From: Candidatus Omnitrophota bacterium
GTDB taxonomy: Bacteria; Omnitrophota; Gorgyraeia; Zapsychrales; Zapsychraceae
Length of the DNA: 64,000 bases
Reading direction: 5' to 3'
Assembly (NCBI GenBank): GCA_029261065.1
Contig: JAJDCB010000023.1
Coordinates: forward strand, 39,682-103,681
Numbering within the stretch: position 1 is the stretch's first letter; the number at the start of each line of letters is the position of its first letter. Below, one piece after another: positions 6,979 to 61,988 of the stretch. The translations under genes were made by a program, and so were the position numbers. The notes under the pieces were generated by a model. It was not told where the DNA came from. It was given only the letters and a program-made list of their open reading frames with translations, and did no database searches.

Positions 6979-7473
6979 ATGAATGGAATAATAATTTTAA
7001 GTTTTGTTTTTCTTTTTACAATAGCAATCATTTGGATGCTATCTAAAATAGCGAAAGCTTGTAATCAAGCTCTTGATGTGACGACTACGGGTATGCTCTT
7101 TTTTATTATGGGTTTGTTTGTGGGCGTTCCATTGTTTATTTATGGTGTGGGTATTGTCATTGCTACAATATATTTTACGGCAATCTCATATGATGCCACA
7201 GGATTAGGGATTATCGTTGGGCCACCTATTGCTGCATTGGGATGTCTTTTCTTATTGTGTTTTATACCAGCGGTTCATTGGCTCAAGCCTAATGCTAAGG
7301 GAAAGAAAATGATGATAGTGGCTATTAGTTTTGTTGCGCTTGTTGTTTTGTGTTTTGTTATGAAAGGTTTTGTTGCTTATAAGTGGAGAAACGATGCGTA
7401 TTTTAAGAAGCAAGAGCGAACAAGAGAGAGGTATAAATCAGAGCGTAAAGAGGCGGTGTGGGAGGCTCTTTGA
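6979..7473 (+). CDS. small hypothetical membrane protein (4 TM)
   Basis: AGAGGG RBS; hydrophobic throughout with a basic C-terminal tail. Confidence 0.4.
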   Translation: MNGIIILSFVFLFTIAIIWMLSKIAKACNQALDVTTTGMLFFIMGLFVGVPLFIYGVGIVIATIYFTAISYDATGLGIIVGPPIAALGCLFLLCFIPAVHWLKPNAKGKKMMIVAISFVALVVLCFVMKGFVAYKWRNDAYFKKQERTRERYKSERKEAVWEAL

Positions 7474-7477
7474 TAAT

Positions 7478-8362
7478 ATGTTTAAATATTACTGGGTCCC
7501 CGCTTTCGCGGGGATGACAATATTATTATTTTTATTAATAGAATCGCTTACGTTTAGCGTGGGATCTCCACTTTACCTGTCATTCCCGCGAATGCGGGAA
7601 TCTCATGCTAGCGATAATCTTAATTCAACTGTTACATCAAATTACGTTCTCACCACAGATAACAAAAAAATCAAATACGACCATTATCTCAATGGGCATA
7701 GCCAAGTTATAATCCTTGCCCATGGATTTTACAACAGCAAACAAGCTGTTTTGTTTAAGCAGATGGCTGCTGATTTGAGTGATGCGTATGATGTGATTGT
7801 TTTTGATTTTCGGGGGCATGGGGAAAGTGAGGGGGTGTTTACGTGGACGGCGAGGGAGCCGAAGGATTTGGAGGCGGTTGTTGATTATGCGCATAAGAGT
7901 TATCAAAAGGTAGGTGTTGTGGGTTTTTCTTTAGGGGCGGCATCAAGTTTGATTCTGGCGGCTCAATCGGATAAGATAACAAGTCTTATTGCGGTTAGTC
8001 CTCCTACAAAATTTAGACAAGTCGATTTTCATTTTTGGAAAATGGGTATGGCTGAGAATATTGTGTATAATACGTTTCAAGAAGGACGCATAGGTAAAGG
8101 CGTACGGCCCGGGTTATTGTGGCATAAAAAGACTCATCCGATAAACGTGGTGGATCAAATTCAAACTCCAACGATGTTTGTTCATGGCCAAGAAGATTGG
8201 TTGATTTTACCAGGGCATTCCAAAAAATTGTATGAAAAGGCTAAATGCCAAAAACAACTCAATATTGTTGAAGGCGGAACACATGCCGAGTACTTGTACC
8301 GATCGGATAAAGAGGGAATCATGGATATGTTTAAAGAATGGTTTCAGTTGACATTGTTGTAG
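7478..8362 (+). CDS. alpha/beta-fold hydrolase (esterase/lipase-like)
   Basis: Nucleophile elbow GFSLG; HGF...DFRGHGESEG; C-terminal GGTHAEY with His. The ORF-track start at 7370 overlaps the upstream gene. The true start is uncertain (7478 or 7592) because the 5' region is occupied by repeat units. Confidence 0.65.
   Translation: MFKYYWVPAFAGMTILLFLLIESLTFSVGSPLYLSFPRMRESHASDNLNSTVTSNYVLTTDNKKIKYDHYLNGHSQVIILAHGFYNSKQAVLFKQMAADLSDAYDVIVFDFRGHGESEGVFTWTAREPKDLEAVVDYAHKSYQKVGVVGFSLGAASSLILAAQSDKITSLIAVSPPTKFRQVDFHFWKMGMAENIVYNTFQEGRIGKGVRPGLLWHKKTHPINVVDQIQTPTMFVHGQEDWLILPGHSKKLYEKAKCQKQLNIVEGGTHAEYLYRSDKEGIMDMFKEWFQLTLL
7494..7603. repeat. Pair of GC-rich palindromic repeat units (GGGTCCCCGCTTTCGCGGGGATGACA ... 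TGTCATTCCCGCGAATGCGGGAATC) lying inside the 5' end of the hydrolase ORF
   Basis: Two hairpins of the repeat family read directly; both are in frame within ORF 7478-8362 (peptides VPAFAGMT and SFPRMRESH). Confidence 0.7.
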
Positions 8363-16592: not shown

Positions 16593-18656
16593 ATGACCAT
16601 TTTTAACAAAGCCAAAAACTCCCATTCCTTTTTTTCAATATCCTTTCATTCTGTTATTCTTATTTTTTCATTTTTTATATGGTGTTATCTATTTCGTGGA
16701 TATTTAAGCGGTGAGTTTTTACTCGAATTGGATGCGAAGTCTTATTATGAAAATTTTAAGTTTTTTTTGGATAATTTAAGCCGTGGTGTTTACCCCTTGT
16801 GGAATCCCGAAACGTTTGATGGCATGCCCAATGACTTTTTCTTAAGACGGATTGGCGAACACAATCCCTTTTATTATGTGATGGCCATAGCAATGGCAGA
16901 GGGAGTAAGTTTTTCTTTTTGTTACTTTTCTTTTTTGGCAGGGTATTTTTTCTTAGGCATAATAGGGTTTTATCGTTTGAGTATCCTGATTTTTAAGGAT
17001 AAGGATTTGGCCTTGGTGGCAAGTTTACTATTAATGTTTTCAGGTTTTGCCGGTATTTTATTTAAATCCTTTCTAATTCTTTTGTTTGTTCCTATGGTTT
17101 GGTTTTTTGTTTTCCTCCTTGATTTTGTACGGCGACAATCACGCATGGCATTTCTCGGAATGATTTTAACGTTAATGATTACATCCTCCACATATATCCC
17201 TTTTTATTTTCTTACCATTTTTTTATCTTTTTTGATTTTTTGGGGTGTTGTTTATCGAAAAGATGTGAAGAGCGTTTTAAAAGTATTTTTTGAATTTATG
17301 AGCACTCAACGATTACTCTTTGGTTTTAGCGTTGTTTCATTGATTCTAGCGTTGATTCCTGGCGTAACATTTTTTTGGGAAGTCAGTCGAGGAGATATGG
17401 TTTTTCCTGTAAGGCATTTGGCCTCGGGTAATGCTCATGCTTTAACGGTGAATGTGCAGTCTAGTGCTCACGGCGGTTTACCAGGGGGGGATGTTTGGCA
17501 GATGTTGTTCGGTGATTGGAAGAATATGACATTAGGTCGAATATATGTCCCCCTCGTGACGTACATACTTTTTTTATTAGGGTTTTTTACCCGAGTGACC
17601 CGTTTGGCAATCTTATTTGTTATGTGGTTTACGTTCATGTTTTTGTTATGTGTTTACGATGCTGGGCCAATTTATCAATGGTTATATAAATACGTTTTTT
17701 ACTTTAAATATTTTAGAAATTTTCATTTTTTTATTTGGTTAATACTAATTCCTTTGTTTATTTTGTTAAGTGTTGAACAATTGAAAGTCTTCTTAGCGCA
17801 ACGTGGCCGAGGTAAATTAGTTCAACAATATACACCTTGGAAGCTCATTGTAATCTCTTTTGTCATTCTTGCTGAGCCTGTTTGGGTATTCTCAAGTCTG
17901 CATAACAATGCTCCCAAAAGAATAGATCCGTATACATACGATAAACCCTATCTTGATTTTTCTTATTTGCGAAAAAGAAAGGGGTCGAGAAAAATTTGGA
18001 ATGCTGATTATGAGGCAGGCAAGCGTACTGTCTTAAAAAATCCTTATAAAGCTCAATCCATTTATTTTGGAACGAGTCATTATAATTTTTTGCGATCTAA
18101 TGTAAAAGACTTGGTTTTCTATGAGTATATGCGTTTTAAATTTTTATTATACGATGCTGTAGAGGTTATTAAAGATGCGCCTTTTGATGCAGCTCATATT
18201 TCTTTCTGGATTGATATCCAGCAAAGAATACAACAGAACCTTGCAACAGCACAAAATAGGGCGTTTGTTTCAGCAGGGGAAGATTTTAAGTTTGAAAATG
18301 TAGTAAATCCTGCACAACATGTTTTATCTGTTGAGAGTCCTTCAGAAAAATTTAAAGTCCTGGATTACAATGTTAATCACATTCGTTTAAAAACAAATTT
18401 TTCTACACAGAAGTTCTTAGTCTTTAACGATAATTACTATAAGGGATGGCGTGCTTTTATAAATGATCAGCCTGTGACCATTTGGCGAAGTAATATTGCA
18501 TATAAAGGAATATCGTTACCTCGGGGGGAGAATGTCGTCTTGTTTCGGTATGGATCGATTTTTGTTATTTTGTTTAACTATGTTTTAACATTTCTTATAG
18601 GGTTTATATTATTTTTGATGTGGAGAATGTATGGTCAAGAAAAAAAAAGGCGTTAA
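16593..18656 (+). CDS. YfhO-like polytopic membrane glycosyltransferase-family protein
   Basis: 687 aa and highly hydrophobic. LWNPETFDGMP resembles the YfhO WNPyiFgGmP motif. Divergent from the GT-C gene. Confidence 0.5.
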   Translation: MTIFNKAKNSHSFFSISFHSVILIFSFFIWCYLFRGYLSGEFLLELDAKSYYENFKFFLDNLSRGVYPLWNPETFDGMPNDFFLRRIGEHNPFYYVMAIAMAEGVSFSFCYFSFLAGYFFLGIIGFYRLSILIFKDKDLALVASLLLMFSGFAGILFKSFLILLFVPMVWFFVFLLDFVRRQSRMAFLGMILTLMITSSTYIPFYFLTIFLSFLIFWGVVYRKDVKSVLKVFFEFMSTQRLLFGFSVVSLILALIPGVTFFWEVSRGDMVFPVRHLASGNAHALTVNVQSSAHGGLPGGDVWQMLFGDWKNMTLGRIYVPLVTYILFLLGFFTRVTRLAILFVMWFTFMFLLCVYDAGPIYQWLYKYVFYFKYFRNFHFFIWLILIPLFILLSVEQLKVFLAQRGRGKLVQQYTPWKLIVISFVILAEPVWVFSSLHNNAPKRIDPYTYDKPYLDFSYLRKRKGSRKIWNADYEAGKRTVLKNPYKAQSIYFGTSHYNFLRSNVKDLVFYEYMRFKFLLYDAVEVIKDAPFDAAHISFWIDIQQRIQQNLATAQNRAFVSAGEDFKFENVVNPAQHVLSVESPSEKFKVLDYNVNHIRLKTNFSTQKFLVFNDNYYKGWRAFINDQPVTIWRSNIAYKGISLPRGENVVLFRYGSIFVILFNYVLTFLIGFILFLMWRMYGQEKKRR

Positions 18657-40979: not shown

Positions 40980-43900
40980 ATGAAGACATCGCAGTTAACT
41001 TTAATATTATTATTAGGTTTTGTGATGTCTTCTTTTTTGGGGTGTGATCAATTTCGTCCTCAGGAAAAGGGTCTGGTTATTGTTGATCCAAATTCAGAAG
41101 CAGTTGTTGTTGATGAGCAGGGAGATGAAATTGAAAGTGATTATGTTGATATTGTCGAAACGGTTAAGTCTTCAGAAACTGTTATCTTAAGAGATAACAA
41201 AATATTTACCAAAAATTCAAAGAAAAAATTTATTGAGAAAGATGCATCTCCCGCCATACCTGCAACAAAACAAGGTAACGTTAATAATTTAGAAGACGCT
41301 ATTAAAGAAGATCGTGTACCCACAACAAATTTTCAGTCTAAAGATACGCCTAAAGTTAAAAAAGTCGTTCATGAAAAAAGCATCGATCTCTGCAGTGATC
41401 AAGGATATATCTCCTCAGCCGAATGCCGCCTTTGTAGCGATATTCCAGGAGCTATTTGCAGTGAGACGATTAAATTATCTCATGGGGAGCAATGTTTTGA
41501 ATGTGCCACTCAACAAAAAACTTGCCGAGATTTAGGTTTTTTAAGTAAACGAGAATGTAAGAAATGTAATAAAAATGATGCGACAGAATGTGTATTTAAG
41601 GTAGAGGCGGACAACGGAAAATCTTGTTTTGAATGTGTGGATCGTGCCATCAAGTGTAAAGATTTAGGATTGATGAATTTGGATGAATGCACTTCGTGTG
41701 ACAAAGATCCTAAAATGGAATGCATTGCTGATCAGTTAACTGAGGAAGGGGTTAAGTGTTTTAATTGTGTCATTAAGCCTCAAAAATGTTCACAGCTTGG
41801 TCTCATTGATTTGCCTGGATGCCGTACGTGTCAGGAAGATCCCACAAAAGAATGTAAATCATCTAAGAAAACAAATTATGGGCAACAGTGTTATCAGTGT
41901 TTTGATAAAGAACAGAGTTGCGCGGAAATTAATCAATTAGATGTCTCAGAATGCTCAGGGTGTTTATCTCAGGCAGGTAAGGAATGTATAAAAACAGATA
42001 AAACCAAAGAAGGGTTGCAGTGTTATGGCTGTCAGGATCGTCATGAGTCTTGTGCGCATATAGGTTTGTTAAGCCAAGAGCAATGTGAGTCGTGTGACGC
42101 TAGTGAAAAGACACGCTGTGTTGCTGGACGTCAGACATTACAAGGTGAGTCTTGTTTTTCTTGTGTTAAAAAATCAAAAGATTGTCATGGGCTAGGTTAC
42201 CTTAGTCAAGAAGATTGCAGTATATGTGCTCAAAATCCACAAAAAGAGTGTCAGGCGGAGAGTCAAACAAAAGATGGCGAACAATGTTTCGTTTGTCAGG
42301 ATAAACCACAGCAATGTCAGGATTTGGGATTATTGGTGTCTAATCAATGTGAAGAATGTCAAAAGGATCCTACTAAAGAATGTGTGACCGCATTAAACAC
42401 GCAAGAAGGGCAACCATGTTTTGTTTGTCAGGATAAACCGCAACAGTGTCACGACATCGGTCAATTAGCGTTAGATATGTGTTCTGTTTGTTCGAAAGAT
42501 CCCAATAAGTTATGTTTACCAGGTGATAAAACCGAAGAGGGTGTCCAGTGTTATAACTGTGTCGATAGGCCGCAAGAGTGCAGTGATTTTAATCAACTAA
42601 AATTAGATGAATGTTTATTGTGCGAACAGGACGACAGTAAAAGATGTGTGGCGTATGACAAAACAGAAGAAGAGGTTCAGTGCTTTTTATGTGAGGATAA
42701 ACCGCAAGAGTGTAAAGATTTAGGGTTGTTAGCTCAAGATCAATGTGATTTATGTCAGCAAAATTCAAAGAAGGAATGTAGGGTTGATCAGGTTACAAAT
42801 AGCGGTGTGCAATGTTATTCATGCGCGGATAAACCACAGGAATGTCGGGATCTAGGATTGTTTAGTGAAGATGAATGTGGTTTGTGCGAAGAGAATCCAA
42901 AAAAACAATGTCAGATTGATAAACAAACGAAGGAAGGTGTGTCGTGTTTCATCTGTAAAGATAAGCCAAAGGATTGTTTAGACATTGGGTTATTAAATGA
43001 AGAGGGTTGTCAGATGTGTGAGGGGAATGAACGCAAGGACTGCCAAAAGGATGTTCTTACCGATGCCGGTGTGCAGTGTTATACATGTCAAGATAAGCCA
43101 CAAACTTGTGAAGACTTAGGCTTACTTAATCATGAAGGATGTGGGCGTTGTCAAGAAGATGAAAATACAGAATGTATTTTAGAGGCAAAAACAAATCAAG
43201 GGCAAGGTTGTTATTTGTGTGTAGAAAAATTGCAAGATTGTCAGCAGATTGATCAAATCGATTTATCAGAATGTGCGTCGTGTGAAAAAGATGTAAAAAA
43301 AGAATGCCAGATTGGTCAAAAGACAAAGCAAGGCAAACAATGTTATGAATGTGGAGAGAAGGCGCAAGAATGTCTGGATATAAATTTACTAAGTCTTGAT
43401 GAGTGTTTGGCCTGTGAGAAAGAAGATAATAAAATTTGTCAGCATAAAGATAAAACGAAGGAAGGGGTTCAATGTTATAGCTGTGAAGAGAAACCGCAAA
43501 CGTGTGTAGATTTAGGGTTAATAACGGAAGATGCCTGTGAAGTATGTAATCAGAATACAAGAACAGAATGTCAAGTAGATCAGATGACAAAAGAAGGAGT
43601 GTCTTGTTATTCTTGTCAGCAAAAACCTCAAGAGTGTCGAGATTTAGGGTTGTTTAGTTTGGATGAATGCGCCTCTTGTGAAGAAAATATGCGCAAACAG
43701 TGTCAAGAAGATCAGAAAACAGAAGGTGGGACACAATGTTACATTTGTCAGGACAAACCGCAAGCGTGTCATGACATAGGACTATTGGGAATAGATGAAT
43801 GTCAGCGCTGTGAAAGTCAATCTAATAAAATTTGTCAAGTGGATATCCTTACTGAGACCGGTACGCAATGCTTTACGTGTCAAGATAAGCCGCAAGAATG

Positions 43901-46900
43901 TGAAGACTTGGGGCTTCTTAAACAAGCACAATGTGAAACATGTCAGCGTGATGCGAATAAGGAATGCATGTTAACCGAGAAGACGAATCAAGGCGAGCAA
44001 TGTTTTGTGTGTGTTGAGAAGCCCCAAGATTGTTCACAGCTAAACCAGGTGAGTTTGGAAGAGTGTCAAACATGTAATGCCGATCCTGACAAAGAGTGTC
44101 GCGTAGGTAATAAAACGAAAGAGGGAACGCAATGTTATGAATGTGTAGATAAGCCGCAAGATTGTGCGCAGTTGGAATTGCTGAATTTAGAAGAGTGTTT
44201 TGTTTGCGAGGAAAATTCATCGAAAGAATGCGTATCAACTGTGAAAACAAAAGAAGGGATTCAGTGTTATGGTTGTCAGCAGAAAAAGGAAGAGTGTCGT
44301 GATATAGATTTATTATCAAAAGAGCAATGCGAATTTTGTGATCAGAATGCCAAGACAGAATGTCAGATGGATGCCCAAACAAAGGAGGGCAAGCAATGCT
44401 ATTCTTGTGTTCAAAAACCTCAAACGTGCCATGAGTTAGGGCTTTTTAGTCAGGATGATTGTTTAAGTTGTGAAAATAATAAACGCAAACAGTGTCAAGT
44501 TGATCAAAAGACAACGGATGGAACGCAATGTTTTATTTGTCAAGATAAGCCGCAAGAGTGTAATGATATTGGCTTATTAGATGAACCAGGATGTCAAGCC
44601 TGTGATGATAATCCAAACAAAGAATGTCAGGTAGATATTCAGACAGAAAATGGGGTGCAATGTTATACGTGTAAGGAAAAAGTTCAAGGGTGTGAACAAT
44701 TAGGATTTTTGAGCCAATCTCAATGCATGAGTTGTGAGGAAGATGGGCAGAATGAATGTGTTGGTAGTGATAAGACAGCGACTGGAGATCAATGTTATGT
44801 TTGTGTTGAAAAACCGCAATCGTGTGTGGAGCTTGATCAAGTTGGTTTGGAAGAATGTCAATCATGCGAAGCTGAAGATGGCAAAGAGTGCCATGTTGGT
44901 AACAAAACCAAAGAAGGACGACAATGTTATGTATGTGCTGATAAACCTCAAGAGTGTCACGACTTGGATTTAATTAATTTGGATGAATGTTTATCGTGTG
45001 AAGAAGATAGCAACATGAAATGTAACAGTAAAGGAAAAACGCAAGGTGGTATCCAGTGTTACGCCTGTGAAGAAAAGAAACAAGAGTGTCGTGATTTAGG
45101 ATTTTTAGCTTCAGATCAATGTGAGTTTTGTAATAAAAATGATAAAACGGAATGTCAAGAAAGTGAAAAAACAAAAAGTGGTGAGTTATGTTTCAGTTGT
45201 GTCATGAAACCTCAAACATGTCACGGTCTTGGGTTGTTTAGTTTAGATGATTGTCAAACATGCGAAAGTAATCCGCGTAAACAATGCCAGGCTGATCAAA
45301 TGACGGATGATGGATCCCAATGTTATATATGTCAAGATAAGCCGCAAAACTGTCGAGATATTGGACTGTTAGGCGAGGATGGATGTCAATTATGTGAGAA
45401 AAATAATAAGACATGTCAGGAAGATATATTAACGGAATCGGGCGTTCAGTGTTTTAGTTGTAAAGATAAACGAATGACGTGTGATGATTTGGGGCTACTT
45501 GGCCAATCTGATTGTAAAACGTGTGAGCATGATGCGAATAAGGAATGCATGCTATCCGAAAAAACGAACGATGGCGAACAATGTTTTGTCTGTGCCGAGA
45601 AGCCCCAAGATTGTTCTCAGTTAGATCAGATTAATTTGAGAGACTGTCAATCCTGTGAAAGCGACTCCTCGAAAGAATGTCGTGTTGGTAATAAGACGAA
45701 AGAAGGACGGCAGTGTTATGGATGTGTTGATAAACCACAAGAATGCGCGCAATTAGAACAGATAACGTTAGATGAATGTTTATCCTGCGAAGAAGATCCC
45801 AATAAAAAATGTATGACAAAAGATAAAACGCGTGAGGGCGTGCAATGCTACGCGTGTGAAGATAAGAAAAAAGAATGTCGAGATTTAGGCTTATTCTCCG
45901 AGGAACAATGTTCTTTCTGCCAACAGAATTCAAACACGGAATGTCAAGCTGTTGAAACAACACCTGATTCATTAACATGTTTCTCTTGTGTAGAAAAACC
46001 ACAAACGTGTCATGGTCTGGGTCTTTATAACCAAGAAAATTGTCAGAAGTGTGAAAGTAATCCACGTAAACAATGTCAGGCGGATCAAAAGACAAAAAGT
46101 GGAGAGCCGTGTTTTATTTGTCAGGATAAACCGCTTGAGTGTGAGGATATAGGTCTTCTAGATGAAGAGGGGTGTCGCGTTTGCCAAGATGGTTTGGGTA
46201 AGGTTTGTCAAAAAGATATTCTAACTGAGAATGGCGTGCAATGTTTTACTTGCGAAGAAAAACCGCAAGAGTGTCCGGATTTAGGTCTGTTAAGTTCAGA
46301 GGGATGTGCAGAGTGTCAAAACGATTTAACCAAGGATTGTTTACTAGCTCAGAAAACAAATCAAGGAGAAGAATGTTTCTTATGTGTGGATAAACCTCAA
46401 ACATGCCAAGGCATTGGTCAATTAAATTTAGACGAATGTCAAACGTGTGAATCAGATGGAACTAAAGAATGTTTGGCAGGAAATAAGACAAAAGAATCTC
46501 GTCAGTGTTACACATGTGAAGATAAAGCACAAACGTGTGAAAGTATAGATTTGATCAATTTAGATGAATGTCAAAATTGTGATGAACAGCCAAACATGGC
46601 CTGCAAAACGTCTCAGAGAACAAAGGAAGGGCGTCAATGTTATTCATGTGAAGAACGGGCTCCAGAGTGTCTAGACTTTGGGCTCTTATCACAAGAACAA
46701 TGTCAGCAATGTAATCAGAATCCATCCACGGAATGTCGAAAAGAAAAGAGTATGACATCAGGAGAAGGATGTTATGCCTGTGTGGATAAACCACAAGAAT
46801 GTCAGGACATTGGACTACTTAATCAAGAAGATTGTTCGCAATGTGAAAAAGATAAGCGAAAAGAATGTCGAGCTGATCAAACAACAAAAGAAGGCGTTCA

Positions 46901-47738
46901 ATGTTTTGTTTGTCAAAAGAAGCCAAAACAATGTGGAGATATTGGATTACTTGCGAAAGATCAATGTGTTCAGTGTGAAAAGAATGGAAGAAAGCAATGT
47001 CAGCAAGATTCGAAAACAAAATCAGGTGAGCAATGTTATGTGTGTGAAGATCGGCCTGAGGCGTGTGACGATTTAGGTTTGATTAATGACAAGCAATGTA
47101 AAACATGTGAAAGCAATCCAAAGGCCAAATGTGTGGCCACAGCTAAGACGAATAATTCTGATCAGTGCTTTAGATGTGTGATGCAAGAACAACAGTGTTC
47201 TGATATTGGACTCTCTGATTTATCAGAATGTTCAGCTTGTGAGAGTGATTCTAATAAACAATGTTTGGCTGCAAAAAAGACTGATAGTGGTATTCAATGT
47301 TATTCTTGTCAAGAGAAACCGAAGGGTTGTGCGAGTCTTTCACAACTAAGTTTGGCGGAATGTAATTCTTGTGAGACCGATGATAATAAGACATGTCAAC
47401 AAGCCAAGAAAACAGCCGATGGGGAGCAGTGTTATTCTTGTGAAGATAAACCACAACAACAACCAAGCCAGGCTTGCACAGATATTGGTCAGTCCAGTTT
47501 TGAACATTGTAAAGATTCATGTCCCGGGGAATGTTTGGAGGCTAGCTCCACAAAAAGTGCTGAACAATGTTACCGCTGTAAGGTTCCATTAGGAGCTCGA
47601 GAATGTCTGGATTATGAATATTTTCAAGATTGTAATTCTTGTACAGCAGATGAAAAATGTGCCAAGACAGGGTTGAGGTTGTTTGAAGGTAGTGGGCGTG
47701 GCGTTCCTTTAACCTGTTATACTTGCCGCCCGAAGTAA
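40980..47738 (+). CDS. giant cysteine-rich tandem-module lipoprotein (no recognised family)
   Basis: 2252 aa; TGGAG RBS; signal peptide with lipobox FLGC. About 45 tandem 44-aa modules with invariant spacing C-x2-C-x6-C-x10-C-x2-C-x7-C and core [DE]KPQxCxDLGLL. Very rich in K/E/D/Q; about 270 Cys in total. Confidence 0.8.
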   Translation: MKTSQLTLILLLGFVMSSFLGCDQFRPQEKGLVIVDPNSEAVVVDEQGDEIESDYVDIVETVKSSETVILRDNKIFTKNSKKKFIEKDASPAIPATKQGNVNNLEDAIKEDRVPTTNFQSKDTPKVKKVVHEKSIDLCSDQGYISSAECRLCSDIPGAICSETIKLSHGEQCFECATQQKTCRDLGFLSKRECKKCNKNDATECVFKVEADNGKSCFECVDRAIKCKDLGLMNLDECTSCDKDPKMECIADQLTEEGVKCFNCVIKPQKCSQLGLIDLPGCRTCQEDPTKECKSSKKTNYGQQCYQCFDKEQSCAEINQLDVSECSGCLSQAGKECIKTDKTKEGLQCYGCQDRHESCAHIGLLSQEQCESCDASEKTRCVAGRQTLQGESCFSCVKKSKDCHGLGYLSQEDCSICAQNPQKECQAESQTKDGEQCFVCQDKPQQCQDLGLLVSNQCEECQKDPTKECVTALNTQEGQPCFVCQDKPQQCHDIGQLALDMCSVCSKDPNKLCLPGDKTEEGVQCYNCVDRPQECSDFNQLKLDECLLCEQDDSKRCVAYDKTEEEVQCFLCEDKPQECKDLGLLAQDQCDLCQQNSKKECRVDQVTNSGVQCYSCADKPQECRDLGLFSEDECGLCEENPKKQCQIDKQTKEGVSCFICKDKPKDCLDIGLLNEEGCQMCEGNERKDCQKDVLTDAGVQCYTCQDKPQTCEDLGLLNHEGCGRCQEDENTECILEAKTNQGQGCYLCVEKLQDCQQIDQIDLSECASCEKDVKKECQIGQKTKQGKQCYECGEKAQECLDINLLSLDECLACEKEDNKICQHKDKTKEGVQCYSCEEKPQTCVDLGLITEDACEVCNQNTRTECQVDQMTKEGVSCYSCQQKPQECRDLGLFSLDECASCEENMRKQCQEDQKTEGGTQCYICQDKPQACHDIGLLGIDECQRCESQSNKICQVDILTETGTQCFTCQDKPQECEDLGLLKQAQCETCQRDANKECMLTEKTNQGEQCFVCVEKPQDCSQLNQVSLEECQTCNADPDKECRVGNKTKEGTQCYECVDKPQDCAQLELLNLEECFVCEENSSKECVSTVKTKEGIQCYGCQQKKEECRDIDLLSKEQCEFCDQNAKTECQMDAQTKEGKQCYSCVQKPQTCHELGLFSQDDCLSCENNKRKQCQVDQKTTDGTQCFICQDKPQECNDIGLLDEPGCQACDDNPNKECQVDIQTENGVQCYTCKEKVQGCEQLGFLSQSQCMSCEEDGQNECVGSDKTATGDQCYVCVEKPQSCVELDQVGLEECQSCEAEDGKECHVGNKTKEGRQCYVCADKPQECHDLDLINLDECLSCEEDSNMKCNSKGKTQGGIQCYACEEKKQECRDLGFLASDQCEFCNKNDKTECQESEKTKSGELCFSCVMKPQTCHGLGLFSLDDCQTCESNPRKQCQADQMTDDGSQCYICQDKPQNCRDIGLLGEDGCQLCEKNNKTCQEDILTESGVQCFSCKDKRMTCDDLGLLGQSDCKTCEHDANKECMLSEKTNDGEQCFVCAEKPQDCSQLDQINLRDCQSCESDSSKECRVGNKTKEGRQCYGCVDKPQECAQLEQITLDECLSCEEDPNKKCMTKDKTREGVQCYACEDKKKECRDLGLFSEEQCSFCQQNSNTECQAVETTPDSLTCFSCVEKPQTCHGLGLYNQENCQKCESNPRKQCQADQKTKSGEPCFICQDKPLECEDIGLLDEEGCRVCQDGLGKVCQKDILTENGVQCFTCEEKPQECPDLGLLSSEGCAECQNDLTKDCLLAQKTNQGEECFLCVDKPQTCQGIGQLNLDECQTCESDGTKECLAGNKTKESRQCYTCEDKAQTCESIDLINLDECQNCDEQPNMACKTSQRTKEGRQCYSCEERAPECLDFGLLSQEQCQQCNQNPSTECRKEKSMTSGEGCYACVDKPQECQDIGLLNQEDCSQCEKDKRKECRADQTTKEGVQCFVCQKKPKQCGDIGLLAKDQCVQCEKNGRKQCQQDSKTKSGEQCYVCEDRPEACDDLGLINDKQCKTCESNPKAKCVATAKTNNSDQCFRCVMQEQQCSDIGLSDLSECSACESDSNKQCLAAKKTDSGIQCYSCQEKPKGCASLSQLSLAECNSCETDDNKTCQQAKKTADGEQCYSCEDKPQQQPSQACTDIGQSSFEHCKDSCPGECLEASSTKSAEQCYRCKVPLGARECLDYEYFQDCNSCTADEKCAKTGLRLFEGSGRGVPLTCYTCRPK
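41470..47490 (+). repeat. Intragenic tandem repeat: 132-bp unit (one 129-bp copy) with a higher-order super-repeat of 6 units (792 bp)
   Basis: Protein periodicity read directly. Antisense stop-free artefact ORFs at 43126 and 43918 are exactly 792 bp apart. Comparable modules 12 units apart (e.g. 43930-44040 vs 45510-45620) look about 80-85% identical by eye. Confidence 0.75.
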
Positions 47739-56724: not shown

Positions 56725-56782
56725 GGGAAAATAACGGCGTTCGCATTGGATTCAAGCTGAGCTGAGTGGTATACTTACACTA

Positions 56783-57223
56783 ATGAACAGTAATCATCCA
56801 AAAAAGGGATTTAGCCTCACAGAGCTTGTTGTCGTTATGGTTCTTGTTGGGGTTATTGCAGCCATGGCTATTCCAACTTATACAACAATGGTGCAAAAAA
56901 GAAGAGAGCAAGCCGTAAGACTGAAGTTACAGACGATACATGCGGCTAATTTGATTTATAAAGCAAAAAATGATGTTTATTATAATGACAATAGTACTAA
57001 TATTGCAGACGTGAATACGGCGCTTCAAACGAATGTTAATATAGAAAGTTATGAACAACTTGGTTATCAAGTTAATGATCCTGCTTACATTATCGTAATT
57101 TTTATTGCCACCGATGGTAACGGGGTAGGTGTGAGATTACTTGATGCTGTTATGGATGATAATAACCCTTGTTGTATTGTTGGGACAGGTTGGGACTCTT
57201 GTATATCTATGCCAGATTGTTAA
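56783..57223 (+). CDS. type IV pilin (prepilin with class III signal peptide)
   Basis: MNSNHPKKG|FSLTELVVVMVLVGVIAAMAIP: leader, Gly-1, Phe+1, Glu+5 and a hydrophobic helix. The C-terminal Cys-Cys...Cys...Cys region is consistent with a D-region disulfide loop. Confidence 0.75.
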   Translation: MNSNHPKKGFSLTELVVVMVLVGVIAAMAIPTYTTMVQKRREQAVRLKLQTIHAANLIYKAKNDVYYNDNSTNIADVNTALQTNVNIESYEQLGYQVNDPAYIIVIFIATDGNGVGVRLLDAVMDDNNPCCIVGTGWDSCISMPDC

Positions 57224-57266
57224 ATAATTTTTCCCCTGCCATTTTTAATTAATTATCTATTGTTAT

Positions 57267-58751
57267 ATGAAGAAAATTTCTAACATCATTTTTTATGGGC
57301 TGATTGTTTTGTTTTTGTATGTTCAGCTAACAACTATCAAAGCAGGTCATAGTTGGGGAGGAGATTTTAGTCAGTATATTCAGCATGCGAAAAATCTGAT
57401 TGAATTAAAACCTTATCATCAAGGCATTATGCTTGATGAGTGGGTGAATAACCCTGTTGGTTTTCCTTTGATGTTAGCGCCTTGGATTAAGGTTTTTGGT
57501 GTTAATTTTAAAGTTTTAAAAATTATCAATGTGCTTAGCTGGTTGTTTTTTGTTCTGTTTTTAAGAGCCTTAGCCAAAAAACGTTTGGATGATCCTTTAG
57601 CGGATCTGTTAAGTATTTGTCTTTTAACCTCACCTTTTTTCTTCACATTTAAACAAAATATCATTAGTGATGTCCCTTTCTTAAGTTTGCTTACTTGTTC
57701 CCTTTTTTTATGTCATCATTTTTTTACCACAAAGAAACATTCCTTTGCATTTTTGTGTCTTCTAGCGATTAGTTTGAGTTTTACCTTACTTATTCGTTGG
57801 GCAGGACTAACGCTATTTGCTTCGGTCATTTTGTATTTGTTGATCAATGCCTATGACAAGAAATATGTCGTGGCAACGATGTTGATTCTAGGTTTAACAA
57901 TCTTTGTTCAATCTTTAGCCGGTATCAATTTGGGTCACCATCTTCAAGAGGGACCTCAGGGGTGGGTGGCTTGGAGTCATCAGTCTTACCAATTGATGTC
58001 TTATAATCTTAATAATTTTTTTATATTTTTTGTGCCTTCCTTTAAAGGGGTGGTTTTATCTCGCGGTGTCACGTTTTTGTTTACAGATATCGTGACTCCC
58101 ATCATATTTTTTGGTAGCATTCTATTTTTATTATTGAGAATGATGAAAAAGAAAGCGGATATTCTAGAATATTTTTTATTAGTTTATTTGTGCGCCTTGT
58201 TGATTTGGCCTCTGCAGGGAGGGGTAAGATATGTTTTACCGATTGTTGGTGTTTGTTTGATTTTGATGATCCAGGGCGTTGTCGTTGGTTTGCAAAAGCA
58301 AGATCCGAAAGCATGGGTTGTTAAGGGATTGTGTTTATTGTTAATCATGAGCAATGGTGTTCACATCTATAAAAATTATTCATTTAACGATGATGTGATT
58401 GCTCAACCCGATACACAAGAGTTGATTGCTTGGATCAAAGAGACAACACAGCCAGAGGATCATTTCATGTTTCAGCGACCGCGTACTCTTACTTTAATAA
58501 CAGATCGAAAATTTGCGCCATTTTTTATTTATAGTCAGGATGCGGCTAAGTGGTATCAACGTATTGAACGGTTTAACATCCGTTATCTTCTCGCCTTTAA
58601 TTCCTCCGTTCATAAAATGCTTTCAAGTTTTCCTCCGGATTATATACAATTGCGACAGGTGTGGCAGAATGAGAAGTATGTAGTTTTGGAAGTGGTTGAG
58701 ATAAAAGGTCGTGATGTCATTCCTGCGGAAGTGGGGAATTCAAAAAAGTAA
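57267..58751 (+). CDS. polytopic GT-C/PMT_2-like membrane protein immediately downstream of the pilin (possible pilin glycosyltransferase)
   Basis: 494 aa with about 11 TM helices. N-terminal loop AGHSWGGDFSQYIQHAKNL...PVGFPLML. The placement resembles pilA-tfpW-type arrangements (inference). Confidence 0.4.
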   Translation: MKKISNIIFYGLIVLFLYVQLTTIKAGHSWGGDFSQYIQHAKNLIELKPYHQGIMLDEWVNNPVGFPLMLAPWIKVFGVNFKVLKIINVLSWLFFVLFLRALAKKRLDDPLADLLSICLLTSPFFFTFKQNIISDVPFLSLLTCSLFLCHHFFTTKKHSFAFLCLLAISLSFTLLIRWAGLTLFASVILYLLINAYDKKYVVATMLILGLTIFVQSLAGINLGHHLQEGPQGWVAWSHQSYQLMSYNLNNFFIFFVPSFKGVVLSRGVTFLFTDIVTPIIFFGSILFLLLRMMKKKADILEYFLLVYLCALLIWPLQGGVRYVLPIVGVCLILMIQGVVVGLQKQDPKAWVVKGLCLLLIMSNGVHIYKNYSFNDDVIAQPDTQELIAWIKETTQPEDHFMFQRPRTLTLITDRKFAPFFIYSQDAAKWYQRIERFNIRYLLAFNSSVHKMLSSFPPDYIQLRQVWQNEKYVVLEVVEIKGRDVIPAEVGNSKK

Positions 58752-58796
58752 ATAATGTTATCTTTGTGTAAGTTGGAAGCTCGAAAAATTAATCTC

Positions 58797-58870
58797 TGTC
58801 ATCCCCGCGAAAGCGGGGATCTCGAAGGTGTTATAATTATGAATAGTTCCCCGCTTTCGCGAGGATGACA
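58797..58870. repeat. Two GC-rich palindromic repeat units (TGTCATCCCCGCGAAAGCGGGGATC ... TTCCCCGCTTTCGCGAGGATGACA)
   Basis: Read directly between convergent gene ends. Confidence 0.7.
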
Positions 58871-58877
58871 CTATTGT

Positions 58878-59726
58878 TTAATGCGGCGCAAAGAGCTTAT
58901 GTTCAACGAGTAGCTCATAAAGCTTATCCGCTATCCGCTGATTAACCAAAACACTTGCATGCGAATCATTTTTATTAATCACACGTTTTAGAACGGGTAT
59001 ATCTTCAACCAAATTTGCAACATTGATTGTTGGGATTTGAAAGCGAAAGAAAAACTCTTCAACAAAGTTTGTGAATTCCAAACTTTCATGGGTGTTATGT
59101 AAAAATGGAATGACTACAACGTAGGTGGGAATTTTATTTTCTTGAGCGTATTTGACAAGATGAAGGAGGTCTCTTGTGTGTTCGTTAAGAATGAATTTGT
59201 TGTTGTAAGCCTTTTTTAAAAAGGCTAGATAATCTTCGGTGTCTTTGCGCGGAAATTGCCAGTAGATAAAGTTTATCAGATAAGAATTTTTAGTCATAAA
59301 TTGAAACACATAAGGAACATCAGAGTAGGCGGTAAAACCTTTAAAGGTGTGTCCATTAGCGGTTGCCGCCCCTTCAATATCATTGACAAAATATTGAAAG
59401 ATAAGAACGTTTGGTTTGATTGGAAATTTAATGAGTCGATAAAGTTCAGTTGCGGTATCGTTACCTAGTCGCCCAAGATTTAACACGTGATACTCATGCG
59501 ATAGTCTTTTTTTTAAGATGTTTGAGAACCTTTCATCCACATGCTTTAGGCCATGTCCGGCAACAAAAGAATCTCCGATGACAAATAATGTTTTTTTATC
59601 TTTAAAATCTTCTTTTTGAAGCTCCTCATCCCGATACCGTAATTTATTTACAGGTTTCCAGTAATAATCAAACCAACGGTTAGAAGCTAATGTGTAGCCA
59701 ACAGTGTGGCTTTGGGGGATGAACAT
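58878..59726 (-). CDS. SGNH/GDSL-family hydrolase (esterase/acyltransferase-like)
   Basis: 282 aa; GDS(L)-like block LFVIGDSFVAGHG; block III and catalytic DSHAS (DxxH) near the C-terminus; in-frame stop 10 codons upstream of the ATG. Confidence 0.7.
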   Translation of the reverse strand: MFIPQSHTVGYTLASNRWFDYYWKPVNKLRYRDEELQKEDFKDKKTLFVIGDSFVAGHGLKHVDERFSNILKKRLSHEYHVLNLGRLGNDTATELYRLIKFPIKPNVLIFQYFVNDIEGAATANGHTFKGFTAYSDVPYVFQFMTKNSYLINFIYWQFPRKDTEDYLAFLKKAYNNKFILNEHTRDLLHLVKYAQENKIPTYVVVIPFLHNTHESLEFTNFVEEFFFRFQIPTINVANLVEDIPVLKRVINKNDSHASVLVNQRIADKLYELLVEHKLFAPH

Positions 59727-59989
59727 GAAGAAGCCTTCAAGGAGAAAAAAAGGCTAAAGAGACCAAGAAAAATAAGTGCGATGTTTTTCATGGACTCGGA
59801 CGCTCTTTTATTTTTATAGATAAGTTGAAAAAATAGAAGACAACTTAGTATTAAACATGCGATGAGCAGAATTAAGCGGAGGGTGAGATAGATAAAGGTA
59901 GGAAATGGGGTGGAGTCGAGGTAGGTGATGAGGAAGGGGGTGGTGAGTGTTGTGAGGAAGAGGAGGATTGTGATTAGAGTTTTCATTTT
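59687..59989 (-). CDS. small 3-TM membrane protein, possibly the frameshifted N-terminal anchor of the SGNH hydrolase
   Basis: ATG at 59989 (MKTLITILLFL...). Overlaps the SGNH ORF by 40 nt in another frame, across an A7/T7 tract. Confidence 0.4.
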   Translation of the reverse strand, partial: KMKTLITILLFLTTLTTPFLITYLDSTPFPTFIYLTLRLILLIACLILSCLLFFQLIYKNKRASESMKNIALIFLGLFSLFFSLKASSCSSPKATLLATH

Positions 59990-60167
59990 ATTTTTTTGAG
60001 GTCCGGGGATCCAGTCACAGTAGTATAGTACAAACATTCCAACCCAAGTAAACGCTCTTCTCAAATTTTTATTTTCAAATTATTTAGATTCTATGTTACA
60101 ATCTCTCATTAAATTCAATTAAACCCCCAAGTTTTACACTTCCCCCTCTAATTGAGGAGATCATCAT

Positions 60168-61988
60168 ATGCGAGTTTTAACAAAATCACCCCAACACATT
60201 TTAAAATCCGTTTTTGGTTACGATGCCTTTCGGCCATTGCAAGATGAATGTATTCGTGATGTTTTAAAAAAGAAAGACAATTTGCTTGTCATGCCGACAG
60301 GTGGGGGCAAGTCGTTATGCTATCAAATCCCAGGTCTTATTTTTGATGGTCTGACTATTGTTGTTTCCCCTTTAATAGCCTTAATGCAAGATCAGGTGAG
60401 TCAACTTAAAGCGCTTGGTGTGGATGCTGTCATGTTAAACAGTTCTTTAACTTGGGATGAGTATGATCGAAATAAAGCTCTTGTTTTAAGCGGACAGACA
60501 AAATTGCTTTATTTGGCACCAGAAACTTTAGTCAAAGATGATATCCAACACATGTTATGCGAAATTTCCGTTGATTGTATTGCCATCGATGAAGCCCATT
60601 GCATTTCAGAGTGGGGCCATGATTTTCGTCCGGAATATAGACAACTTAAAAGTTTACGCAAAAATTTTCCAGATGCCGTTTATCTAGCAATGACAGCAAC
60701 AGCGACCCCGCGTGTGCGTCTGGATATTGTCAGCAATCTGGGATTACAAGTGAAGGAACCTTTGATTGCGAGTTTTAATCGTGAGAATCTTTATTATGAA
60801 GTGATCCCGAAATCTAGTCCTAGTCTGCAAACGTTGGATTTTTTAAAACGCTTTAAACATCAAAGCGGAATCATTTATTGTTTTTCTCGTAAACAGGTGG
60901 ATGCTTTGACCGCTGAACTTAATCAACATGGCTATAAAGCGTTGTCCTATCATGCCGGTCTTCCCGATGATGTGCGATCACGTAATCAAGAGATGTTTAT
61001 TCGGGATGATGTTCAGATTATGGTGGCAACAATTGCCTTTGGTATGGGGATCAATAAACCCAATGTTCGTTTTGTCATTCATTTTGACCTGCCTAAAAAC
61101 TTAGAATCCTATTATCAAGAAACAGGACGCGCTGGACGTGATAATTTGCCAGCCCATTGTTTGTTGTTGTTTGGTTATGGCGATATCAGAAAGATTCGTT
61201 ATTTTATTGATCAAAAAGAAAGTGATGATGAAAAGCGCGTTTCACAAACACAGTTAAATGCGATGATTCATTATGCTGAGGCAGAAGCGTGTCGGCGAAC
61301 ACCTTTAATGAATTATTTTGGAGAAACCTATACGCGTAAAACATGTGGTCAATGCGATAATTGTTTAAATCCTAAAGAAGTCAATTTTGATTTAACTGAA
61401 GCAGCCAAGAAGTTCCTTGAAACGGTTTTAAAAACAGGAGAACGTTTTGGAGCTTCTCATGTGATTGATGTCATAAGAGGGAGTCGATCACAAAAGGTAT
61501 TAAGTTATTTTCATGAACAATTAGATGTCCATGGCATTGGTCGTGAGTATAGTGCCAAGCAGTGGCAATTTTTGGTAAGACAGTTTATTCAAAGGCAGCT
61601 ACTTTATAAAGAGCCAGAATATGGGGTTCTTAAATTAAATGCAAACTCGAATAAAGTTTTAAAAAATGAATTAGAAGCGCAAGGGTACGCGCCACCAGCT
61701 GAAAAAGAAAAGGTTGTTTCAAGAGTTAAAAAAGAACTCGTGATTGAAGATTATGATGCCGTTTTGTTCGATATATTACGAAAGAAAAGAAAACAGCTAG
61801 CCGACAGTCAAGGAATCCCGCCCTATATTATATTTCCAGACAAATCTCTTATCGAGATGAGTGCTACTTTGCCACAGAATAAAGATAGTTTTTCCACTAT
61901 TTTTGGGGTAGGTCAAAAAAAGCTTGAAGATTATGGGGATGCTTTCCTTGGAATCATTCAGGCCTATTCTCAAGCTAGGCATAAGTAA
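60168..61988 (+). CDS. recQ: ATP-dependent DNA helicase RecQ
   Basis: 606 aa; GAGGAG RBS. Motif 0 FGYDAFRPLQ; Walker A PTGGGKSLCYQ; DEAH box (IDEAHCISEWGHDFR); a Cys-rich run consistent with the RQC zinc-binding site; C-terminal HRDC-like region. Confidence 0.9.
   Translation: MRVLTKSPQHILKSVFGYDAFRPLQDECIRDVLKKKDNLLVMPTGGGKSLCYQIPGLIFDGLTIVVSPLIALMQDQVSQLKALGVDAVMLNSSLTWDEYDRNKALVLSGQTKLLYLAPETLVKDDIQHMLCEISVDCIAIDEAHCISEWGHDFRPEYRQLKSLRKNFPDAVYLAMTATATPRVRLDIVSNLGLQVKEPLIASFNRENLYYEVIPKSSPSLQTLDFLKRFKHQSGIIYCFSRKQVDALTAELNQHGYKALSYHAGLPDDVRSRNQEMFIRDDVQIMVATIAFGMGINKPNVRFVIHFDLPKNLESYYQETGRAGRDNLPAHCLLLFGYGDIRKIRYFIDQKESDDEKRVSQTQLNAMIHYAEAEACRRTPLMNYFGETYTRKTCGQCDNCLNPKEVNFDLTEAAKKFLETVLKTGERFGASHVIDVIRGSRSQKVLSYFHEQLDVHGIGREYSAKQWQFLVRQFIQRQLLYKEPEYGVLKLNANSNKVLKNELEAQGYAPPAEKEKVVSRVKKELVIEDYDAVLFDILRKKRKQLADSQGIPPYIIFPDKSLIEMSATLPQNKDSFSTIFGVGQKKLEDYGDAFLGIIQAYSQARHK

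Follow-up and report, generated by a model that had tools for sequence, protein, structure and literature searches.

One SGNH hydrolase gene broken by a single nucleotide at a T7 tract in an Omnitrophota bacterium, probably through a recent deletion

Programmed -1 frameshifting and slippage are exemplified by E. coli dnaX with its A_AAA_AAG heptamer, the IS1/IS3 transposases, Thermus dnaX at a run of A9 and Shigella mxiE at a run of T9. In E. coli, UUN codons and motifs made up of pyrimidines only are prone to shifting (PMC4066793), and nascent-chain events are reported to enhance -1 frameshifting (PMC12776465). Transcriptional slippage makes use, in most bacteria, of runs of about 9 (PMC1088944), and single-base insertions during transcription concentrate in A/T runs, rising exponentially with run length (PMC5574713). 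Conservation of a frameshift among orthologs is the accepted criterion for recoding, poly-A/T tracts of at least 7 are counted as candidate phase-variation tracts, and singletons among frameshifted genes, once homology has validated them, are put down to an indel mutation or a sequencing error (PMC3711429).

The locus described here lies in a 64,000-nt stretch of DNA (the window), which is 92% coding and holds intact ORFs of up to 2252 aa. Two ORFs on its minus strand, one encoding a membrane protein and the other an SGNH hydrolase, share 40 nt (59687-59726), the largest overlap between ORFs anywhere in the window (Table 1). The ORF listing puts the start of the membrane ORF further out, at a TTG at 60064 that gives 125 aa, and the N-terminus of this ORF aligns from residue 1 with full-length homologues, including P0003 and P0004. 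Its codons 1-81 are native and cover TM1, TM2 and the greater part of TM3, after which a tail of 18 codons (SLKASSCSSPKATLLATH) runs out of frame to a TAG at 59689-59687. The hydrolase frame, in turn, is closed by a TAG at the tenth codon upstream of its ATG. From that stop to the ATG it reads CCT TTT TTT CTC CTT GAA GGC TTC TTC ATG, a stretch without any alternative start codon. The part of it that encodes LLEGFF, including the invariant Glu84 (59736-59738), is translated by neither ORF call.

Table 1. Features of the broken gene, in coordinates of the window
Feature	Position	Strand	Remark
Membrane ORF, 5' fragment of the broken gene	59986 (ATG)-59687	-	99 aa
TAG closing the hydrolase frame upstream	59756-59754	-	immediately 5' of CC+T7
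T7 homopolymer (A7 on +), site of the frame break	59745-59751	-	presumed intact state T8
T_TTT_TTC, in-frame X_XXY_YYZ heptamer	59744-59750	-	read from the sequence
LLEGFF, conserved end of TM3	59727-59744	-	hydrolase frame, upstream of the annotated ATG
Hydrolase "start" ATG, conserved internal Met88	59724-59726	-	weak SD-like GAAGG 7 nt upstream
SGNH ORF, 3' fragment with the SGNH domain	ATG 59726-59724 to 58878	-	282 aa, motif blocks intact

Homology confines the change of frame to the 9 nt of CC+T7 (59753-59745), between the TAG of the hydrolase frame and the family-conserved LLE. Read as T8, the tract gives CTT TTT TTT, that is Leu79-Phe80-Phe81, and either one added T or a -1 slip on T_TTT_TTC leads to the same protein of 369 aa. 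The restored junction reads ...GLFSLFF LLEGFFMFIPQSH...; the two forms can be told apart by their peptides, with ...FFSLKASSCSSPK as the tail of the split product and ...GLFSLFFLLEGFFMFIPQSH... as the junction of the fused one. The initial annotation had described two ORFs that overlap by 40 nt, with a stop ten codons before the hydrolase ATG and a homopolymer at their junction, and had proposed that a change of one nucleotide would fuse the membrane anchor to the hydrolase. The coordinates bear out this geometry, the T7 sits exactly where the frame must change, and the restored fusion is the string that had been written down at the time. The plus-strand string GGAGAAAAAAAGG given for the tract is also correct, although it occupies 59741-59753 and not 59741-59755, a trivial slip.

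The position of a homopolymer at the break is beyond chance. Of the 9-nt intervals in the window, 0.35% contain an A/T run of at least 7 and 1.6% overlap one, so that the chance of a 9-nt interval holding such a run is 0.0035. The length of the tract, on the other hand, is ordinary for this genome of 37% GC: the window has 66 A/T runs of at least 7, and 18 of them are longer than T7 (16 have 8 nt and 2 have 9 nt). Among the 53 such runs in ORFs, a count made up of 52 runs inside ORFs and the T7 run at the edge of the upstream ORF, T7 alone breaks the frame. Poor homopolymer quality across the assembly was considered and rejected; indels simulated at every run gave a single other candidate, A9 at 18640-18648, where reading of the sequence revealed two complete genes that overlap by 26 nt, with a good SD.

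The two ORFs descend from one gene, which is continuous in the relatives. Homologues of 377 aa (P0002), 365 aa (P0003) and 384 aa (P0004) span both ORFs, and the fused ORF in relatives measures ~360-385 aa. Among 160 related loci, 136 give a single tblastn segment across the junction, and in 145 the frame stays open for 55 codons or more ahead of the Met, with 9 more cut by contig ends; six loci have short N-terminal extensions, two of which (L081 and L104) were inspected and found to be continuous across the junction. This agrees with the single fused ORF that the initial annotation had predicted for orthologs, and is the opposite of orthologs consistently encoding two genes, the observation it had set against its own proposal. 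When T8 is assumed, the alignment of the restored 369-aa protein with 101 relatives (33-46% identity) has no gap at the junction, and the protein's N68-E84 spacing of 16 residues is the same as in P0002-P0004. The protein collection searched, the genome scan and the metagenome scan yielded no relative above 46% identity. In two intact relatives (L081 and L128) an in-frame T8 occupies the same codons, and across the relatives the T run at the corresponding spot takes every length from 1 to 8. E84 is invariant in the alignment of homologues, a Met is conserved in the Met88 column of nearly all relatives, and the motif LE..F-MF[IV]P[QR]SH is present in 88 distinct relatives.

The AF2 model of the restored protein (pLDDT 87.4) predicts three helices, at residues 2-25, 30-57 and 64-88, with Met88 falling at the end of the last of these (TM3). 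Together with the alignment, the model shows that the hydrolase ATG did not evolve as a start but encodes an internal Met of the family, conserved where TM3 ends. The SGNH motifs comprise GDS in block I (Ser140 at 59568-59570), LGRLGN in block II, VND with N202 in block III and NDSHAS in the C-terminal block; G138, D139, S140, G175, N202 and D203 are invariant in the homologue alignment, and the C-terminal NDSH aligns with the ND.H or FDGH of homologues. Foldseek returns a probability of 1.00 and TMt values of 0.73-0.78 to TesA and generic GDSL esterases (4jgg, 4rsh and 4rw0). The restored protein scores 21.8 bits against Pfam PF13472 (Lipase_GDSL_2), below the gathering cut-off of 32.9, and its homologues carry precomputed PF13472 hits. 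It is a divergent member of the SGNH/GDSL hydrolase superfamily with a generic TesA-like fold. The only NCBIfam match of its family is to LA_2486, far below the cut-off of 300 (P0004 with 31.7 bits and P0002 with 22.2), and the window protein has no match to LA_2486.

With TesA and the Lipase_GDSL_2 hydrolases the protein shares the fold, the GDS, Gly and Asn blocks and an Asp/His near the C-terminus, whereas the family described here adds a three-helix N-terminal anchor with an invariant Glu in TM3. It also has large helical insertions, the domain measuring 282 aa here compared with about 180 aa in the TesA type. The textbook last block of SGNH hydrolases is D-x-x-H, while that of the window protein is D-x-H. 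The intact architecture of a widespread uncharacterised family is thereby defined: a three-helix anchor, a TM3 Glu, the LE..F-MF[IV]P[QR]SH motif and a TesA-like SGNH domain. One of its intact members is WP_190886272.1 of Spirosoma profusum.

The broken gene lies between AddB and RecQ, in an interval that also holds a pilin-like and a PMT_2 gene. In the nearest relative found (L163, with a RecQ that is 66% identical) AddA, AddB and RecQ follow in the same order, and an unrelated 137-aa ORF replaces the pilin-like, PMT_2 and SGNH genes; the interval is thus variable, differing from this relative. None of the window's neighbour genes occurs in the 160 related loci, where carbamoyltransferase/SxtJ or sugar-modification genes are found nearby. 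A promoter and terminator scan of 58700-60200 gave nothing above shuffle expectation, the tRNA scan found none, and an Rfam search of the window returned no match.

The reading we favor, at a probability of roughly 0.6, takes the locus for an incipient pseudogene, in which one ancestral SGNH gene has recently lost its function through a frameshift. The ancestral gene encodes a protein of ~369 aa with three N-terminal TM helices and a C-terminal SGNH esterase domain, which the positive-inside rule predicts to face the periplasm. A T8 run encoding Leu-Phe-Phe inside TM3 would then have lost one T to become T7. Because of this loss, translation from the true start would depart from the frame after Phe81 and end 18 codons on, yielding a membrane stub of 99 aa. 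This would leave the conserved internal Met88 as the sole start for the SGNH domain, and since the product made from it would have neither TM3 nor any export signal, it should stay in the cytoplasm, apart from an envelope substrate. The gene would thus be wholly or almost wholly inactive. Small amounts of full-length protein may arise by non-programmed events, either through insertion of one U by RNA polymerase or through a -1 slip on U_UUU_UUC, both of which would restore the exact ancestral sequence.

Apart from the break at T7, no further stop, frameshift or lost invariant SGNH residue was found in the gene. Because it has no other lesion and its invariant residues are intact, either the lesion is recent or the gene is no pseudogene; a sequencing error, reversible switching or recoding would leave the remainder just as undamaged. 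The T7 is probably real in the DNA, as it is the sole frame-breaking run among the 53 and the split products of 282 aa and 125 aa are both on record in NCBI and in Logan, with the fused 369-aa form absent, though the two records may share reads.

If the break were instead an artefact of sequencing, assembly or consensus, the organism would have T8 and an intact gene, one T having been dropped in sequencing or polishing. The lesion does have the form of a classic homopolymer miscount in an otherwise perfect gene, and the source appears to be metagenome-assembled, its contig measuring 124,669 nt and its nearest named RecQ relatives being Candidatus Omnitrophota MAGs. Moreover, among singleton frameshifts that homology validates, sequencing errors are expected by the GeneTack authors to outnumber mutations (PMC3711429). 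We nevertheless regard an artefact as unlikely. The 52 other in-ORF A/T runs of at least 7, including those of lengths 8 and 9, all keep the frame, which points to a low rate of error per run. NCBI and Logan also have identical entries for both split products and for three flanking proteins, and the fused form is recorded in neither; this agreement speaks against a fault of the assembler or of polishing and for accurate reads, and is compatible with a systematic read error. A different possibility, that a small 3-TM protein and a soluble SGNH hydrolase are two genuine, separately translated genes whose overlap evolved, is exceedingly improbable and already contradicted. Gene callers output both products and the downstream ATG is preceded by a weak SD-like element, but the Met it encodes is an internal one conserved in the family, and neither gene would translate the family-conserved LLEGFF stretch with the invariant E84. 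The upstream protein would end in an 18-residue out-of-frame tail, TM3 (AF2 helix 64-88) would be cut in two, and the overlap would be the largest in the window. Such a split is seen in no related locus, including the two inspected among those with short extensions.

Reversible switching of an envelope-modifying esterase by slipped-strand mispairing between T7 and T8, with the sequenced population in the OFF state, would account for a homopolymer exactly at the frame break and an ON state one repeat unit away. The tract reaches the candidate length of at least 7 for poly-A/T tracts (PMC3711429), an envelope-facing product is predicted (AF2 model and positive-inside rule), and the gene lies beside a GT-C type glycosyltransferase (PMT_2) in a variable interval, a class typical of phase variation. 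However, the tract is short, and because its length is ordinary for the genome, with 66 A/T runs of at least 7 per 64 kb and 18 of them longer, a phase switch is not indicated. In an AT-rich genome, a TM helix written in Phe/Leu codons is enough to explain the T run, which in relatives has every length from 1 to 8; no second allele is on record and no other gene of the window has the pattern. On balance, a phase switch is rather unlikely. Programmed recoding, in which T7 is the functional state and a set fraction of -1 slips on U_UUU_UUC or of U additions by RNA polymerase provides the full-length anchored hydrolase alongside the 99-aa membrane protein, is very improbable. The zero frame does contain a canonical X_XXY_YYZ heptamer of the shift-prone class (PMC4066793), and a slip on it restores the exact ancestral protein. 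The site follows TM2 by ~23-50 codons, nascent-chain events are reported to enhance -1 frameshifting (PMC12776465), and a ribosomal slip could possibly be helped by the pull of TM2 membrane insertion while the ribosome is on the heptamer. Yet no stimulatory hairpin or pseudoknot was found, folds compared with shuffles giving z-values of -0.55 (64 nt) and -1.3 (121 nt); the downstream RNA forms only a weak 5-bp hairpin, 4 nt past the site, and there is no SD-like element upstream of the heptamer. Because both the structure and the upstream element are absent, programmed frameshifting is not indicated. The heptamer is also commonplace, as 46 ORFs of the window contain 201 in-frame X_XXY_YYZ sites (with Y = A or T), 8 of which are T_TTT_TTC. 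Furthermore, the run of 7 is below the ~9 used for transcriptional slippage (PMC1088944), and a frameshift at the corresponding site occurs in 0 of the 145 continuous relatives.

Of the four options listed in the initial annotation, a phase switch and programmed frameshifting are without positive support. It is quite improbable that T7 is maintained as functional, either with the level of a periplasmic esterase set by slippage or as a heritable T7/T8 ON/OFF switch of an envelope enzyme, and nothing here points that way. We know of no reported contingency locus in Omnitrophota. If true, a T7 that is maintained and either decoded by slippage or switched by its length would add modestly to the known cases of recoding or phase variation, here from an uncultured phylum. 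The main consequence is for annotation: a single gene, flagged as frameshifted, should replace the two ORF calls (125 or 99 aa, and 282 aa), and the 282-aa entry should not pass for a soluble SGNH hydrolase whose N-terminus is genuine.

A partner of an O-acyltransferase of the DltD or AlgX/PatB type had been suggested for the fused protein, a suggestion that Pfam, the fold ranking and the flanking genes leave unsupported. Kinship with these proteins was rejected, as the restored protein has no Pfam DltD or AlgX match; neither DltD nor AlgX is among the top 50 structural matches, and PatB ranks only 32nd-33rd (TMt 0.56-0.57). No MBOAT gene is an immediate neighbor, the flanks being the PMT_2 glycosyltransferase and RecQ. 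The likeness to DltD, AlgX/AlgJ and PatB lies in a tethered or periplasmic SGNH-type domain at the envelope and is one of analogy only. Those proteins partner MBOAT, whereas many Bacteroidota relatives of the window gene sit between carbamoyltransferase and SxtJ-like genes.

With the programmed -1 and slippage systems the locus shares an in-frame X_XXY_YYZ heptamer, here made of the T run, and, as in Shigella mxiE, a -1 slip or one extra U leads to a longer homologous product. Unlike dnaX, the IS elements and mxiE, however, the site is without downstream structure or an SD-like stimulator, its run is 7 and not 9, and the frameshift is conserved in no relative examined. Slipped-strand phase-variable contingency genes, such as Mycoplasma fermentans p78 with its poly-A tract (cited in PMC3711429), have in common with it a homopolymer at the break, ON and OFF states one unit apart, a predicted envelope-facing product and a variable interval next to a glycosyltransferase. 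In contrast to such genes, the tract is short and genome-typical, no length variants are on record, such sites are not enriched in the window, and the host is an uncultured environmental bacterium. Singleton frameshifted genes, or incipient pseudogenes, at poly-A/T runs are represented by the GeneTack class of 'singleton fs-gene validated by BLASTp' (PMC3711429). Like the members of that class, which are often annotated as two adjacent hypothetical genes, the gene has a 1-nt break in a homopolymer, two halves that match one protein and no conserved frameshift in relatives. There is no essential difference from this class; in the present case the lesion is located with single-nucleotide precision, and a conserved internal Met is shown to underlie the downstream 'start'.

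The membrane ORF and the SGNH ORF overlap by 40 nt, as the initial annotation had described. The membrane ORF product begins MKTLITILLF... and ends ...GLFSLFFSLKASSCSSPKATLLATH. Read in the frame of the hydrolase, CCT TTT TTT CTC CTT GAA GGC TTC TTC ATG comes right after a TAG (59756-59754); this TAG is the tenth codon upstream, so the reported stop ten codons 5' of the hydrolase ATG, with a T run in between, is confirmed (the end coordinate reported for GGAGAAAAAAAGG was two bases too high, a trivial difference). The frame change is limited to 9 nt, CC plus the seven Ts (T7). As just 0.35% of the 9-nt intervals in the window hold an A/T run of at least 7, the coincidence of tract and frame break is causal rather than due to chance. 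Adding one T (T8), or a -1 slip on T_TTT_TTC, restores the frame with an identical outcome, a 369-aa protein reading ...S78 L79 F80 F81 L82 L83 E84 G F F M88 F I P Q S H... across the junction.

Features of the SGNH locus and copies of the REP-like element (window positions)
Feature	Position	Strand	Remarks
Membrane ORF	ATG 59986 to TAG 59689-59687	minus	99 aa; 125 aa if from TTG 60064
SGNH ORF	ATG 59726-59724 to 58878	minus	282 aa
Homopolymer T7	59751-59745	minus	
Heptamer T_TTT_TTC, zero frame	59750-59744	minus	
REP-like element copies	58797-58870; also 1260, 7497, 7585, 53855, 58722		

Both ORFs belong to a single gene. When the restored protein served as query, the top match was the 282-aa product itself (100% identity), followed by full-length proteins of 341-384 aa, 33-44% identical, that span both halves. 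Scans of GTDB species genomes and JGI metagenomes yielded 160 related loci, 136 of which gave a single tblastn segment over the junction. The expectation that orthologs would encode a single fused ORF was likewise borne out, with an open frame of at least 55 codons 5' of the Met in 145 of the 160 loci (contig ends cut 9, and anchors are shorter in 6). Across 101 full-length relatives aligned with MAFFT, the junction has no gap and a family motif, LE..F-MF[IV]P[QR]SH, stands out, which makes the supposed start Met of the hydrolase a conserved internal residue and not an evolved initiation codon. Glu84, encoded in the hydrolase frame 3' of the T run and 5' of the ATG, is invariant, and its distance of 16 residues from Asn68, conserved and in the membrane-ORF frame, is equal in three full-length homologues (P0002, P0003 and P0004). 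That these are two true genes is extremely improbable. In two intact relatives, the best metagenome match L081 and L128, the corresponding codons contain an in-frame T8, which illustrates the intact state and shows that such T runs come naturally from the Phe, Leu and Ile codons of the third transmembrane helix (TM3). The L081 homologue (440-1391; 44% identity) has a one-helix anchor (MKQGKKSRSIIMKILLFICCLLIIFFIAEALFMF...) versus three helices here.

The most probable explanation (roughly 0.6) is a real T8-to-T7 loss-of-function frameshift, and the event is recent because the SGNH gene carries no other lesion. A sequencing or consensus error is unlikely: the frame is kept at all 52 other A/T runs of at least 7 inside ORFs, and coding sequence makes up 92% of the window, whose intact ORFs reach 2252 aa (the largest at 40980-47738, + strand). 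By exact look-up, NCBI and Logan both have on record the two split products (282 and 125 aa) as well as three neighbour proteins, and the fused protein is absent from ~15 billion sequences; this speaks for accurate reads and makes an assembler artefact less likely, with the caveat that both records may share reads. Slightly less likely again is a reversible phase-variable switch. The gene class fits, with a product that faces the envelope, a PMT_2 glycosyltransferase gene as neighbour and a location within a variable interval, but the tract is ordinary (66 A/T runs of at least 7 occur in the window, and 18 exceed it in length) and no second allele has been recorded.

Programmed recoding at T7 is more doubtful still. 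T_TTT_TTC does belong to a heptamer class that is shift-prone in E. coli (PMC4066793), but it is undistinctive, accounting for 8 of the 201 in-frame X_XXY_YYZ heptamers (Y = A or T) in the 46 large ORFs of the window. Downstream RNA folding resembles that of shuffled sequence (z -0.55 and -1.3), the sole structure 3' of the heptamer being a 5-bp hairpin 4 nt away, and there is no Shine-Dalgarno (SD)-like element 5' of it. Runs used in transcriptional slippage are ~9 long (PMC1088944), as against seven here. Programmed frameshifting is recognized by a site conserved across a gene cluster, whereas a homology-validated singleton falls into the class of indel mutations or sequencing errors (PMC3711429); no relative has a frameshift at the T7 site.

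Apart from T7, the only homopolymer flagged when indels were simulated at every run was A9 at 18640-18648, a false alarm. We rejected it as a second frameshift, as it lies in a 26-nt overlap (18631-18656) between two complete genes, encoding a 687-aa polytopic membrane protein and a 308-aa membrane-anchored TPR protein, whose termini both look complete (ATG 18631 with a GGAGA SD). Read in two frames, this A9 is nevertheless slippage-prone.

With the T8-to-T7 frameshift, ribosomes from the true start run out of the native frame beyond Phe81 and meet a stop 18 codons on. Met88 has no more than a weak GAAGG, 7 nt to its 5' side; initiation there would yield an SGNH domain lacking both TM3 and a signal peptide, which would therefore presumably remain cytoplasmic. 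Small amounts of full-length protein could still arise if RNA polymerase added one U or through a spontaneous -1 slip; polymerase single-base insertions cluster in A/T runs and become exponentially more frequent as the run lengthens (PMC5574713).

The locus sits where gene loss is likely, the cargo between AddB and RecQ being different between relatives. In the window this interval (56725-60167) holds a pilin-like gene (N_methyl motif), a PMT_2 GT-C glycosyltransferase and the split SGNH gene, whereas in L163 (GCA_029261055.1), the nearest relative with a long contig and syntenic for AddA, AddB and RecQ, it (7312-8000) contains nothing but an unrelated 137-aa ORF. RecQ and AddB are 66% and 61% identical between the two; RecQ puts the window close to Candidatus Omnitrophota, whose named matches are 62-63% identical, and the nearest match is 67% identical. 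Between the convergent 3' ends of the PMT_2 and SGNH genes, where no canonical terminator was found, lie the 26-nt arms (58797-58822/58845-58870; 92% complementary) of a REP-like palindromic element with core CCCGCGAAAGCGGGGA, present in 7 copies (at most 3 mismatches) versus 0.11 expected by chance.

The genome is metagenome-derived, and the locus is an ordinary homopolymer frameshift in a gene that lies within a variable interval. The sequence bears out the finding, which was correctly read at the outset; both ORFs should be entered as one frameshifted gene.

Among the relatives, mostly Bacteroidota, a carbamoyltransferase gene lies near the SGNH gene in 88 of 160 loci and an SxtJ-like gene in 69. 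The order in L009, L010, L026, L029 and others is a 620-aa carbamoyltransferase (PF02543 and PF16861), immediately followed by an intact SGNH gene, and then SxtJ-like PF19588, a small membrane protein encoded 3' of the SGNH gene in many relatives; the window lacks this recurrent, uncharacterised trio. On one metagenome contig the SGNH gene follows sugar-modification genes (GT2, methyltransferase, DegT and epimerase), and a role in envelope-glycan modification would be a reasonable guess. Some distant homologues lie within long ORFs, of 1125 aa in a Brocadiaceae MAG (L017, 5559-8936) and ~1030-1080 aa on metagenome contigs L129, L132 and L148, which suggests domain fusions.

AlphaFold2 modeled the restored protein confidently, with a pLDDT of 87.4 and a pTM of 0.84, placing helices at 2-25, 30-57 and 64-88, with TM3 spanning the T-run codons unbroken and ending at Met88. 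The sole strongly basic loop, KNKRAS, joins TM2 to TM3, so by the positive-inside rule the SGNH domain is predicted to face the periplasm. This domain represents a divergent SGNH hydrolase. In the alignment, blocks I-III are invariant and a C-terminal D-x-H block is present; Pfam Lipase_GDSL_2 scores 21.8 bits, short of its gathering score of 32.9, and a profile search against PDB sequences reached a best E-value of 2e-4. In NCBIfam, the LA_2486 esterase alone matched, far below threshold and for two relatives only. The suggested analogy to DltD, AlgX or PatB was not supported, since DltD and AlgX are outside the top 50 structural matches, PatB ranks only 32nd and no MBOAT gene adjoins the locus. 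The fold itself is clear all the same, and TesA and GDSL esterases match it at TMt 0.73-0.78.
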